A DNA stretch of 64,000 nucleotides from an uncultured Desulfosarcina sp. (lineage in GTDB: Bacteria > Desulfobacterota > Desulfobacteria > Desulfobacterales > Desulfosarcinaceae): contig CAXXWQ010000002.1 in NCBI GenBank assembly GCA_963674945.2, forward strand, positions 544,001 to 608,000, written 5' to 3'. Shown here piece by piece: positions 931 through 58,470 of the stretch. The number at the start of each line of letters is the position of its first letter. Position 1 is the stretch's first letter. The notes beneath the pieces were generated by a model, which was not told the origin of the DNA, did no database searches, and saw only the letters and a program-made list of their open reading frames with translations. The translations under genes were made by a program, and so were the position numbers.

Positions 931-1028
931 AGAATCCAGGAGTCAGAATTCAGAATCCAGAATCAGGTATTCGCCTTCGGCTCGATCCATCCATTCATTC
1001 TGACTCCTGTGGTTTTCCACGATCGCAG
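931..1028. repeat. Heptamer-armed palindromic repeat (family H), copy 1, internally deleted; empty site for the 70-bp insert at 960|961
   Basis: AGAATCC AGGAGTC AGAATTC AGAATCC AGAATC ... TTCGCCTTCGGCTC ... TTCTGACTCCTGTGG. Bases 931-960 are identical to 18074-18103. Confidence 0.85.
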
Positions 1029-16855: not shown

Positions 16856-17004
16856 TAGTAAGGCACAGATGCGGCCACCCTACCCGCCTTGCCGGCGGTC
16901 GTTGACTTTTTTCTATCCTTCGGGCAAAAGACTGCCATAGACGAAGCATATGGTTCAATTTAGGAAAACAGCGATGGTATCGAAATACCTTCGGAAAGGT
17001 GCAC

Positions 17005-17997
17005 ATGGTTGAATCCAGGACGGTTCGTGCCCTTGGACTTTGTTCCGGTGGATTGGACAGCATATTGAGCGCCCTGATTCTCAAAAATCAGGGAATCGAG
17101 GTGAGCTGGGTCACATTCGAGACGCCTTTCTTCTCGTCGGCCAAGGCCCGAAAGGCATCGGCGCAGATCGGTGTGCCGCTGACCGTACGAAACATCACTG
17201 AAACATATCTGAAGATGATGCGTGCTCCCGGGGTAACGTTCGGTAAGAACATGAATCCGTGCATGGAGTGCCATACGTTGATGTTCCGTTTGGCCGGCGA
17301 GATGATGACCGCCAAAGGGTACGATTTTTTATTTTCCGGTGAAGTATTGGGGCAGCGCCCCATGAGTCAGAACAAATCCTCCCTTCGGTACGTGGAAAAA
17401 CACTCGGGCCATGATGGGTACATCGTCCGGCCCCTGTCCGCCAGGAATCTTCCCGAGACCACAGTCGAACGCCAAGGACTGGTGGACCGAAATCGCCTGT
17501 TGGATATTTCGGGTCGATCCCGAAAAGTACAGATGGACCTGGCCAGGGGATTTGGTGTGACCGATTACCCTGCACCTGCCGGCGGTTGTCTCCTGACGGA
17601 CAAAAATTTCAGCCGTCGCCTCAAAGACCTGTTTGACCACCAGAAAACCTGTTCCGAAAAGGACCTTGAATTGCTGAAGTCCGGCCGTCATCTGCGTTTG
17701 GACGCGTCGACCAAACTCGTGGTGGGGCGAACACACAACGATAACGAGCAGATCGGCAGGTGGTTCGATCCCGAATCGGATTTGGTTTTCAAGGTGGATC
17801 AACATCCCGGTCCACTGGTTGTGATGCCCAATGGTGGCGGCGAGCCCATGGTCATGCTGGCGGCCAGCATTTGTGCCGGGTACTCCAAGGCACCCGATAA
17901 CATGCCGGTCATGGTCAACGTACACGCTGGCGGTTTCCGGCGGCAGGTCACCGTGCTGGGCATTCCGCCCAAAGAGTGTAAAAAGTTTATGATTTAG
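17005..17997 (+). CDS. PP-loop tRNA sulfurtransferase-like protein (ThiI/MnmA-related, DUF814-type C-terminus)
   Basis: SGGLDS PP-loop, NPCMECH, GEVLGQRPMSQ and PAGGCLLT motifs. Confidence 0.8.
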   Translation: MVESRTVRALGLCSGGLDSILSALILKNQGIEVSWVTFETPFFSSAKARKASAQIGVPLTVRNITETYLKMMRAPGVTFGKNMNPCMECHTLMFRLAGEMMTAKGYDFLFSGEVLGQRPMSQNKSSLRYVEKHSGHDGYIVRPLSARNLPETTVERQGLVDRNRLLDISGRSRKVQMDLARGFGVTDYPAPAGGCLLTDKNFSRRLKDLFDHQKTCSEKDLELLKSGRHLRLDASTKLVVGRTHNDNEQIGRWFDPESDLVFKVDQHPGPLVVMPNGGGEPMVMLAASICAGYSKAPDNMPVMVNVHAGGFRRQVTVLGIPPKECKKFMI

Positions 17998-18073: not shown

Positions 18074-18293
18074 AGAATCCAGGAGTCAGAATTCAGAATC
18101 CAGCGCCGCCGCTGACCTTTGGTCGGTTTGAACGATAATTGAAACTATGCCATTTTGGCGTAGTTTCATACGAGAATCAGGTATTCGCCTTCGGCTCGGT
18201 CCATTTTATCCAATCGACGGAGCGAAGCGATATCAACTTCATTCTGAATCCTGAATACTGGCTTCTGACTCCTGTGGTTTCCCGCGATCGCAG
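18074..18293. repeat. Heptamer-armed palindromic repeat (family H), copy 2, carrying the 71-bp insert
   Basis: Left arm AGAATCC AGGAGTC AGAATTC AGAATCC; core TTCGCCTTCGGCTC...GAGCGAAGCGA; right arm ATTCTGAATCCTGAATACTGGCTTCTGACTCCT. Confidence 0.9.
18104..18174. mobile_element. 71-bp site-specific mini-insertion in repeat H
   Basis: Removing it restores the sequence at 931-990 (30/30 left, 29/30 right). It has two internal hairpins, no terminal IR and an AG on both sides. Confidence 0.75.
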
Positions 18294-18341: not shown

Positions 18342-19391
18342 TTACTGCCGCTGTGCCCGCAACTGTCCGCAGGCCGCCGATATGTCCTGGCCCTTGCTGT
18401 GCCGAACGATCACCGTGTAGTGATGTTGGGCGAGAAATTCCTGGAACCGTTGGATTTGCTGCGGTGACGGACGCTTGAATTCGCAGCCCGGGTGCTCGTT
18501 GAAGGGGATGAGGTTGATCTTCGCCTTTACGGGCCGGAGTATTTTCGACAGGTTGTCCGCATGGGAAACGGCGTCGTTAACCCCCGCCATGAGGATGTAC
18601 TCGAAGGTGATCTTTCTTCGAGGGGGCAACGGATACCGCCGGCAGGCCGAAAGCAGGTCGACAAGGGGATATTTTCGATTGATGGGCATGAGGCGGGACC
18701 GGGTTTCGTCATCGGCGGCGTTTAGCGAGACGGCCAGATTCACCTTGGTCTGTTTGCCCAGATCTTCCATTTTGGGGACCAACCCGGCGGTGGATACGGT
18801 GATCCGTCGGCTGGAAATCTTAAGCCCCCAGTCGCCATTGGAGATGACATCGATGGCATGAACGACATTGTCATAATTGGCAAGTGGTTCACCCATGCCC
18901 ATGAAGACGATGTTGGTCAAGGGCATATCCGATTTTCCGTCCAGTCGGTTCTGGACGTCCCTTACCTGGGACACGATTTCGCCGGCAGATAAATTACGCG
19001 AAAAACCACCTTTTGCCGTCATGCAGAACTTGCATCCCTGGCGACAGCCCACCTGGCTCGATATACATAAGGTGTAGTGATCCTTTTCCGGAATGATCAC
19101 CGTTTCGATATGCTGTCCATCTTTGAGCCGAAACAGCAACTTGCGAGATCCGTCATTTGATACGCACTCTTCTTCCAGATACAAACGTGGATTCACGAAG
19201 GTCTCTGCAAGGGCCGTTCGAAGGGGTTTGGCCAGGTTGGTCATGTCGTCGAAACAATCGATCTGGTGCAAATGGATCCAGCGGAGGATCTGATCGCATC
19301 GAAATGGTTGTTGCCCTTGATTTTTCAACCAATCGATCAACTGCGTCCGGGTAAGATCCTTGATGTCGATTTTGCTTGCTATTGGCGTCAT
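18342..19391 (-). CDS. rlmN: 23S rRNA m2A2503 / tRNA methyltransferase RlmN
   Basis: CISSQVGCRQGCKFC, FMGMGEP, INLIPFN and DISAACGQL motifs. Confidence 0.97.
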   Translation of the reverse strand: MTPIASKIDIKDLTRTQLIDWLKNQGQQPFRCDQILRWIHLHQIDCFDDMTNLAKPLRTALAETFVNPRLYLEEECVSNDGSRKLLFRLKDGQHIETVIIPEKDHYTLCISSQVGCRQGCKFCMTAKGGFSRNLSAGEIVSQVRDVQNRLDGKSDMPLTNIVFMGMGEPLANYDNVVHAIDVISNGDWGLKISSRRITVSTAGLVPKMEDLGKQTKVNLAVSLNAADDETRSRLMPINRKYPLVDLLSACRRYPLPPRRKITFEYILMAGVNDAVSHADNLSKILRPVKAKINLIPFNEHPGCEFKRPSPQQIQRFQEFLAQHHYTVIVRHSKGQDISAACGQLRAQRQ

Positions 19392-26551: not shown

Positions 26552-26693
26552 TGTTTTGGCCTCATTGTGGATCATGGGAAAACGTCTTTTCCTTCTAATT
26601 GTAAAGTAACTTCTGCTGCTGTCAAATACAAACTTTTCCCGATGGTCGATTCGTTGTATTCAAACCGGGTTCTTTGCACCCGGAACCAACCCG

Positions 26694-26773
26694 AACGATG
26701 AAAGCACTGACGTGCTTTTGGATATCCGGCCTTTGGTCGGATATCCAAGCCATCCGCGAAACGGGTGGTCGTT
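26694..26773 (+). ncRNA. Candidate structured RNA (four-way junction) upstream of nrdJ
   Basis: Closing stem AACG/CGTT around three hairpins of 7, 13 and 8 bp; the non-Watson-Crick pairs are G-U only on the + strand. Confidence 0.4.
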
Positions 26774-26871
26774 GACCCAGATGAACTTTGTTTTTTCCTG
26801 GTATTTTCCCTGACGTTCAATTACATTAATGGGCGTATTTTGACTCAGAAACAAATGTGTAAGGTCGAAAA

Positions 26872-32306: not shown

Positions 32307-32380
32307 AGAATATAGGAGTCAGAATTCAGCGCCGCCGCTGAATACTCGATTCTGACTCCTGTTGGTTTCCGTAATTGCAG
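32307..32380. repeat. Heptamer-armed repeat (family H), copy 3, collapsed; keeps the first 11 nt of the mini-insertion
   Basis: AGAATAT AGGAGTC AGAATTC AG-CGCCGCCGCTG-AATACTCGATTCTGACTCCTGTTGG. Confidence 0.8.
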
Positions 32381-45540: not shown

Positions 45541-45568
45541 AAGATTTGCGTTCTCATAAGATGAAAGA

Positions 45569-45690
45569 AGAATTCAGGAGTCAGGAGCCAGAATAAAAAA
45601 GGATTTCGCTTCACTCCGACGATTCTAAAAAAGGAACATCGCCGAAGGCATTTCCTTCTTCTGAATTCTAAATTCTGGCTCCTGGATTCT
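45569..45690. repeat. Heptamer-armed palindromic repeat (family H), copy 4, inside the dcw operon
   Basis: AGAATTC AGGAGTC AGGAGCC AGAAT ... TCGCTTCACTC ... CGCCGAAGGC ... TTCTGAATTCTAAATTCTGGCTCCTGGATTCT. Confidence 0.85.
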
Positions 45691-45726
45691 GTAAAAAATT
45701 TTAACAGGCAGTAAAGATATCATCAG

Positions 45727-57100: not shown

Positions 57101-57306
57101 AGAATTCAAGGGTCAGAATTCAGCGCTGCCGCCGGCTTTCAACCGGTTTGAACTAAAACCCGACTTCGGGAAAATGAAGTCAGATACGAGAATCCAGAAG
57201 TTTGATTCGTCTTCGGCTCAGTCGGTAAAAGGATTAGAAATAAAGCAGACGTACTATCTAAAAATAGATAGAGCGTAGCGACACCTTCTCCTGGCTCCTG
57301 GCTCCT
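57101..57306. repeat. Heptamer-armed palindromic repeat (family H), copy 5, carrying a 67-bp insert
   Basis: AGAATTC AAGGGTC AGAATTC AG[insert]AATCCAG ... TTCGTCTTCGGCTC ... GAGCGTAGCGA ... CTCCTGGCTCCTGGCTCCT. Confidence 0.8.
57124..57190. mobile_element. 67-bp mini-insertion, same family as 18104-18174
   Basis: Starts CGCTGCCGCCG, contains GGTTTGAAC, ends ATACGAG; inserted at CAG|AATC. Confidence 0.7.
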
Positions 57307-58079: not shown

Positions 58080-58174
58080 GGATGGTTCTCCTGTTATCGT
58101 CTGTCAAATTGTAACACCCAAATTTTTATCACAAATAGATTACAATGAACAAAGATTCAAAAAACAGATTAAAG

Positions 58175-58397
58175 AGAATTCAGGAGCCAGGAGTAAGAAT
58201 CCAGAATGCGGATTCGCCTTCGGCTCAGCCGATTTGAAACAACCACAGAGGACACAGAGAGCACAGAGAACAATTTAGACCGTATTTCTCTGTGACCTCT
58301 TTGCTCTCTGTGGTGAAAGGATGTTATCTGAAAAAACAAGTTTCTTAAAATTAAAAGGAGCGAAGCGGCAACATCACGATTCTAACTTCTGACTCCT
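58175..58397. repeat. Heptamer-armed palindromic repeat (family H), copy 6, with a nested nonamer hairpin
   Basis: AGAATTC AGGAGCC AGGAGTA AGAATCC AGAAT ... TTCGCCTTCGGCTC ... GAGCGAAGCG ... GATTCTAACTTCTGACTCCT. Confidence 0.85.
58242..58314. repeat. Nonamer-armed palindrome
   Basis: ACCACAGAG GACACAGAG AGCACAGAG ... TTCTCTGTG ACCTCTTTG CTCTCTGTG GT. Confidence 0.85.
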
Positions 58398-58470
58398 ACC
58401 TTCCGTATTTTTGTTATTCGGTGCTCGTAATCTGGAATTTTACATCGACTCCGTGAATTCCCAAGCGATC

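Follow-up and report, generated by a model that had tools for sequence, protein, structure and literature searches.

The window, a 64,000-nucleotide stretch from an uncultured Desulfosarcina sp. whose assembly is 98.7% complete in 4 contigs, contains an intergenic repeat between two convergent genes, one of them rlmN, and this repeat harbors a 71-bp insert (Table 1). Recomputing the comparison of the filled copy at 18074–18204 with the empty copy at 931–990 bore out the first-pass annotation: the flanks match at 30/30 and 29/30 positions, and the filled copy has 71 additional bases. A 67-bp relative at 57124–57190 and a stub at 32330 were likewise as described there. The hairpins of the two inserts, said to differ and yet to pair, do so: in type-2 miniatures the sequence of the type-1 sub-terminal repeat is swapped for C(C/T)GACT/AGTCAG, with spacing kept and pairing largely kept. 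The 71-bp miniature itself comprises no ORF and no RNA, and is classed as a non-autonomous derivative rather than an insertion sequence. An Rfam search of the window gave no match.

Table 1. Miniatures, their parts and their host repeat in the window; + is the direction of the recombinase gene in full-length relatives.
Feature	Position	Strand	Basis or remark
Type-1 miniature, 69 bp plus one AG core	18104..18174	+	Profile copies and end comparison
Left flank AATCCAG, closing in the AG core (18102-18103)	18097..18103	+	Equals 3' target guide in full-length relatives
Left-end arm, 8 nt, core-adjacent	18104..18111	+	Matched by no donor guide (48/264 vs 51.5 shuffled)
Stem B, the left-end hairpin	18112..18126	+	Compensatory changes and variable loop in relatives
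Linker TTTGAA and CG pseudo-core	18127..18134	+	Equals 5' donor guide in full-length relatives
Sub-terminal inverted repeat (18141-18146 pairs with 18162-18167) around 15-nt self-pairing cargo	18141..18167	+	
Right end ATACG and AG core	18168..18174	+	Equals 3' donor guide in full-length relatives
Type-2 miniature, 67 bp, plan 8/stem/6/2/5 as in type 1, inverted repeat C(C/T)GACT/AGTCAG	57124..57190	+	
Stub of the left end (8 nt and a shared CTG), explained most likely by deletion at CTGA microhomologies	32330..32340	+	
Empty host repeat, long hairpin of AG heptamers	931..1010	+	
Host repeat holding the type-1 miniature, between convergent genes	18074..18274	+	Genes 16999-17997 (+) and rlmN 18342-19391 (-)

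A profile search of the 7.08-Mb genome recovered 22 full miniature copies, all at E<=1.6e-12, with the next match at E=0.007. These copies are 67–72 bp long with sharp ends, and 17 belong to type 1 and 5 to type 2. The right end reads ATACGAG in 21/22 copies, and the AG reported on both sides of the inserts is present at both ends in 20/22, the core being mutated in the other two. The left flank is AATTCAG in 15 copies, AATCCAG in 3, AAGTCAG in 2 and AATTCCG in 1, with one copy mis-cut by a 3-nt deletion; AATTCAG itself occurs at just 1020 sites on both strands of the genome. Genome-wide, the inserts thus have sharply defined ends and follow a 7-nt left flank that includes the AG core, in contrast to ragged ends and random flanks. 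A 2-nt core at both ends, with no target duplication and no long terminal inverted repeats, is the arrangement seen in the IS110 family, and the miniature lacks the terminal inverted repeats and target-site duplication of a classical DDE-type MITE. The earlier description of the insert as free of terminal inverted repeats holds for long terminal repeats; a sub-terminal inverted repeat does exist, as the base of hairpin 2.

In structure, the host repeat is REPIN-like: AG heptamers make up a long hairpin that also includes small inner hairpins, and its inner motif has 91 copies genome-wide. Within the window, host-repeat copies occur at 931–1010, 18074–18274, 45566–45703 and 58172–58403, the last containing a further nested palindrome. 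For 14/22 miniature copies, an empty host-repeat paralogue was found that aligns without gaps, and for the remaining 8/22 there is none (one owing to the mis-cut); at least five of the 22 lie outside the host repeat, in unrelated DNA with unrelated right flanks, and two are in its opposite arm. Insertion is not confined to a single fixed site, and the empty, filled and collapsed forms, which had been called alleles, are paralogous loci. A search of four contig sets for the circle junction found none (contigs drop rare forms), and the same sets gave no orthologous empty/filled pair across strains; the 71-nt skips in these sequencing-run contigs are explained by empty paralogues. The stub at 32330 is best read as a deletion at CTGA microhomology, and three right-end-only stubs each arose at TCA microhomology. 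Elsewhere in this genome (G000), a near-perfect palindrome from an inverted left-end duplication lies inside a host repeat (G000:C3:566271-566308). A second, multi-hairpin repeat family of ~125 bp, seen in the window at ~26651–26775, has 12 copies in the genome, three of them nested in the host repeat; it starts sharply after ..GAT/..AAT, ends near GGTCGTTGAC and is possibly an IS200/IS605-type or other miniature element. Between 43153 and 50991, the window also has diverged repeats (families D4, D7 and D9) among a paralogous-looking run of genes, likely common coding motifs.

Similar miniatures are present in 8/24 same-genus genomes. Of 201 genomes of the order, 24 contain the central miniature motif, and two of these have 144 and 197 matches; genomes with a single match are unsure because a backwards control also gives single matches in about ten genomes. 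Record titles of further family matches are mostly from Desulfobacterota. From retrieved loci of relatives, 76 distinct miniatures of 57–234 bp were parsed, all built on one constant frame; the cargo enclosed by their sub-terminal repeats varies from 2 to ~180 bp and often consists of other REP-like hairpins. Relatives hold miniatures in other heptamer repeats too, and head-to-tail arrays, whose joints are the predicted circle junction, are common among them. Genome G166, with 316 right-end motifs in 4.5 Mb, has dense head-to-tail arrays at loci L101–L112, with GTAG- and CGTC-type REP doublets as cargo.

Longer elements with the same ends around a DEDD (IS110) ORF, proposed in the first-pass annotation as a thing to look for, were found at ~1.68 kb in related genomes and metagenomes. 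In two low-copy genomes the right end lies 1636–1637 bp past the left-end motif, and both intervals enclose a 467-aa IS110 recombinase. The collection comprises 90 full-length loci: eight close copies from 7/201 genomes of the order, two from the same-genus genome G008, and 80 from metagenomes. Their left end runs AG core, 8 nt, hairpin, 6-nt linker, C-purine, 5 nt and GAAACT, and their right end AGTTTC, 5 nt and AG, as in the miniatures. Between these ends lie a promoter-like site, a two-loop bridge-like RNA and a DEDD/serine recombinase, in place of which the miniature at 18104 has its 15-nt self-pairing cargo. The recombinase belongs to Pfam families PF01548 and PF02371, scores above the cut-off of NF033542, and has IS621 as its sole PDB match. 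Residues D31, E79, D116, D119 and S351 are invariant in 61/61 distinct recombinase proteins, the invariance of D31 and E79 being forced because rows were chosen by the GIDL and EST motifs. The full-length partner therefore has both the RuvC-like DEDD domain and the Tnp domain with a catalytic serine that define the IS110 family.

The helper is missing from the genome under study. The window had been reported to encode no cognate enzyme, and domain, protein and bridge-RNA profile searches extended this to the whole assembly, detecting no IS110 domains, cognate recombinase or bridge RNA; with no remnant of either recombinase or RNA in the assembly, the miniatures here are orphans today. Among the 8 same-genus genomes with miniatures, only G008 has a close helper. 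A helper RNA query, run without a positive control, returned nothing in G166, G112, G127, G022 and G023. In G166, one contig ends in a C-terminal piece of the cognate recombinase, followed by an intact right end (L237, end of G166:C92), which suggests that the helper of that genome was left unassembled.

Turning to the RNA, a species of ~150 nt with two internal loops is predicted upstream of the gene, with two-sided changes in 14/31 pairs, and the non-coding end of the full-length relatives is thereby predicted to carry a two-internal-loop non-coding RNA of the IS110 kind. Rfam searches of three full-length loci gave no match beyond one sub-threshold CRISPR hit. A promoter-like TTG-N17-TA pattern with a 17-bp spacer, found in 43/57 left ends, suggests a native internal promoter, as in ISPpu9. 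Guide tests used the 76/90 full-length loci that could be parsed, omitting 14 that were truncated or divergent. The 3' target guide matched the left flank at 156/180 positions over 36 distinct pairs (shuffle mean 63.6, maximum 93), and the 3' donor guide matched the right end at 64/65 over 13 pairs (shuffle mean 42.2, maximum 56). The 5' target guide gave a weak, canonically complementary signal against the right flank (126/348; shuffle 86.9, maximum 112), so targeting appears to rest mostly on one guide arm. By the definitions in the available text of PMC11208160, the top strand under this guide layout is the minus (CT-core) strand. The guides of the resident full-length element of G008 match the G008 miniatures in flank and right end, with one linker mismatch.

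Some target guides are directed at the ends of related elements. Of the 76 full-length elements, 19 have a target guide that resembles a right end, and 13/14 of those with a known flank sit behind a right end; a target guide equal to the element's own right end was seen in 0/17. Miniatures of both types also occur immediately upstream of full-length elements with a target guide identical to the miniature's right end (L244, L322). These guide sequences would fit the building of tandem arrays by sibling-end targeting. Lineages aimed at sibling right ends include L215, L216, L291, L293, L296, L312, L317, L320, L322 and L328.

The 5' donor guide has a different partner from that expected of an IS621-type element, in which both donor guides match the bases directly beside the core; here only the 3' guide does. 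Against the reverse complement of the core-adjacent left bases, the 5' donor guide is at chance level (48/264, with 51.5 when shuffled). Against the 6-nt linker past the left-end hairpin, read in the same sense, it matches at 100/120 positions over 20 pairs (shuffle 72.8, maximum 87). This match first emerged from an unbiased column scan, in which left-end columns 26 and 28 equal RNA columns 163 and 165 in 98%. On the 61-protein tree, linker position 4 has 9 RNA changes and 9 DNA changes, 9 of them joint, and 0/54 rows disagree; as a control, unrelated RNA columns on the same tree give 15–24 joint changes. When only strongly supported branches are counted, the linker reduces to 2 independent pairs, 2/2 concordant (p=0.5, not significant), and two target positions reach p=0.016–0.03. 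The same plan recurs at 16 sister-clade loci of 42–52% identity, where the linker scores 78/128 against 51.2 shuffled and the canonical position 34/128, a count that includes two mis-parsed rows and poor linker matches at L224, L225 and L347–L350.

The hairpin between core and linker, stem B, begins 8 nt from the core and stops 6 nt before the C-purine pseudo-core, and its loop is variable. Its positions pair by Watson–Crick rules in 49, 43, 42, 48 and 40 of 49 sequences at a fixed register, with swaps, and the spacer after the pseudo-core is 5 nt in 46/49, a counterpart of the 5-nt stretch in the right end. Mismatches in stem B (G-T 3, A-C 7) decide no strand preference.

We propose that the insert is, almost certainly, an internally deleted, gene-less IS110-family derivative that retained its two ends and was moved in trans. 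The first-pass annotation had offered a trans-moved miniature served by either a repeat-targeting recombinase or an HUH enzyme; the IS110-like branch of that proposal stands, as the same ends enclose an IS110 gene and the RNA guides track the flank and the ends, and the HUH branch lacks support. Taken as a whole, this explanation (an IS110 derivative copied in trans by the recombinase and bridge RNA of the full-length element, with a folded single strand as the probable form) we regard as likely. One folded strand puts both guides in the geometry of IS621, and for this reason we lean, if only a little, towards a donor that is handled as a folded single strand, a reading drawn from sequence. 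Both donor guides would pair with the minus (CT-core) strand, which could fold through the hairpin and the sub-terminal repeat into a stem-flanked bubble of ~13 by 15 nt. The guides would be arranged within this bubble as they are in the IS621 complex, the 3' guide on the core and right end and the 5' guide on the linker opposite. The miniature would leave as a dumbbell single-stranded circle of 57–71 nt, with the cargo in one end loop, and would insert by one top-strand exchange behind YCAG sites picked mainly by one guide arm, with replication completing the insertion. The helper behind the 22 copies likely had a target guide near AATTCAG and has since been lost from the assembly.

The donor could instead be double-stranded, with the same IS110 origin and trans-mobilization: the linker would then be read in an extruded cruciform, as a separate anchor or only at excision, and circles would be made double-stranded before insertion, as proposed for IS621. 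We consider this possible but the less probable course. All covariation results fit a cruciform equally well, and naked DNA has folds of lower energy than the open bubble (-1.8 vs -8.8 and -1.4 vs -4.4 kcal/mol). Against a duplex donor, both donor guides are in the sense of one strand and the core-adjacent arm has no guide; stem B, moreover, holds the exact 8/6/5 spacing despite its variable loop. Miniatures extend down to 57–64 bp, and duplex DNA circles of that size would be strained.

Published work on related elements, in the text available, bears on both readings. IS621 excises a single-stranded circle (10.64898/2026.08.31.748434), CazIS110-1 integrates top-strand ssDNA via top-strand insertion (10.1101/2025.10.25.684509), and engineered 6-nt top-strand mismatches in the left arm help IS621 synapsis (PMC11208158). 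The same preprints on IS621 and CazIS110-1 favor dsDNA for insertion, with CazIS110-1 preferring dsDNA ~20-fold at one junction (10.1101/2025.10.25.684509), and circles of ISPpu9 still form after mutation of its left-end inverted repeat (PMC12288879), results on the side of a duplex donor.

A miniature of HUH type (IS200/IS605, IS91 or RAYT) using its hairpins is very unlikely. Hairpins, a one-sided target and the lack of target duplication would suit such an element; an IS200 TnpA and a long RAYT-like gene are encoded in the genome, where IS91-like genes also occur in broken form, and one RAYT locus of G166 lies among element ends. The searches, however, found these ends neither around nor next to a cognate HUH gene: element motifs are absent around the two Y1 genes of this genome and around 29/30 Y1 loci of five element-bearing genomes, Y2 loci checked likewise lack element ends, and the G166 RAYT was not found in this genome and has paired motifs only at its own locus among 30 homologue loci. 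What the ends do enclose is an IS110 gene, with an RNA that tracks those ends. At that G166 locus (L088:1417-1896, G166:C201), the RAYT is of 159 aa and flanked by GTAG REPs, and its stop codon overlaps an inverted right-end-like motif.

It is still harder to see the insert as an immobile, ancestral part of the host repeat, with the empty copies arising by deletion; the stubs show that microhomology deletions happen and the four contig sets contain no strain-level empty/filled pair, but at least five copies lie beyond the host repeat with unrelated right flanks, which contradicts this reading unless every one descends from a decayed host repeat, and in relatives the family is also found within other heptamer repeats and as head-to-tail arrays. 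Least credible of all is a folded substrate of the solo integron integrase (C3:2206242-2207282) that adjoins one copy at ~170 bp, since 30 tyrosine-recombinase loci of five element-bearing genomes show no paired element motifs, no attC core pattern is present, and such adjacency is plausible by chance because the inner motif of the host repeat has so many copies. That locus (L001:4243-5283) comprises the integron-integrase-like gene, then a host repeat with a miniature and a LexA-like gene, with no cassette array noticed.

Returning to the IS110 derivative, the closest precedent is ISPpu9/MITEPpu9 of Pseudomonas putida KT2440 (ssr9 module; PMC12288879, available text). Shared features are REP-like targets, an internal promoter and, in the direction of the gene, an AG core at either end. 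MITEPpu9, like the miniatures, is gene-less and has the same boxes as its parent, and it occurs as circles and in tandem. In Table S2 of that work, judged by eye, the 43-nt A box of ISPpu9 runs AG, 8 nt, hairpin and terminal CAAACA, and the B box TGTTTG, 5 nt and AG, the plan seen here; the linker-to-repeat spacing looks ~2 nt longer, and the likeness is one of the ends. MITEPpu9 carries an sRNA gene, whereas the 57–234-bp miniatures of relatives carry hairpin or REP cargo, and the available account of ISPpu9 assigns no bridge guides, end-to-end inverted repeat or folded donor.

With IS621, as described in the available text of PMC11208160, PMC11208158 and PMC13626964, the full-length elements share a DEDD and serine recombinase, a two-loop RNA upstream of the gene, repeat targets, a core within the guides, and 3' guides that pair with the CT strand. 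They differ in having their ends inverted relative to the gene, with the AG core in gene direction; in a 5' donor guide that reads the same-strand linker past the hairpin rather than the adjacent arm; in a weak right-flank guide (~36% matches); and in a promoter-like site inside the left end, the IS621-type promoter being one formed at the circle junction. The recombinase is 467 aa long, compared with 328 in the IS621 PDB chain. The copy-out models of CazIS110-1 and IS621 (10.1101/2025.10.25.684509; 10.64898/2026.08.31.748434), as far as their available text goes, have in common with our proposal single-strand excision, top-strand insertion, half-match targets and tandem products; they posit an ordinary duplex donor site and dsDNA as the preferred insertion substrate, whereas the guide layout here implies a fold-back donor. 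In ISPpu10, according to the available preprint text, DNA structure likewise provides an IS110 bridge RNA with a further level of recognition, the stem-loop being on the target; here it would be in the donor, shifting the guide-binding segment (10.64898/2026.03.19.712850).

Gene-less IS110 derivatives with an AG core are thus already known (MITEPpu9, PMC12288879), and the first-pass claim of an undescribed system holds only in part; a 5' donor guide that matches a distal linker beyond the hairpin is absent from the literature searched as far as the available texts go. In the open literature (ISfinder, subscription papers and preprint supplements lying outside the scope), neither this repeat family nor an IS110 donor folded as a single strand is described in what we found, and the available text of PMC6006769 and PMC3733652 contains no match to this repeat family.

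More broadly, the balance of evidence tips slightly towards a wide clade of ~450–470-aa IS110 recombinases that recognize their donor as a folded single strand, with miniatures as dumbbell ssDNA circles of 57–71 nt and with some lineages targeting sibling right ends and so building arrays. This clade would span Desulfobacterota and sister loci in Nostoc, Paraburkholderia and rhizobia, and probably ISPpu9. In such a system the hairpin would set the distal linker opposite the core-adjacent arm, giving a pre-opened bubble that may be viewed as an RNA-guided counterpart of integron attC. Integron attC sites are folded single-strand substrates in which a single exchange is made by a tyrosine recombinase that reads extrahelical bases, and replication resolves the product. 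The likeness would lie in working mode only, the elements here having an RNA-guided DEDD recombinase and not being members of that class.

Programmable insertion is a use for which bridge recombinases are being developed, and there is debate over whether the intermediates have one strand or two. Because the layout of the guides in this clade implies an ssDNA donor that is folded, short oligonucleotides offer a direct test of that question. The distal linker may also explain how covariation surveys with 25-nt core windows could miss one guide (10.64898/2026.10.21.760802, available text). If the folded-donor proposal is true, the minimal donor would be ~57 nt, single strands would be copied in, and the 57–71-nt dumbbell ssDNA circles would be the smallest natural bridge donors observed in this analysis. 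A folded donor is thus a predicted new working mode for programmable bridge recombinases, and an origin can be named for an abundant intergenic repeat family of sulfate-reducing bacteria.
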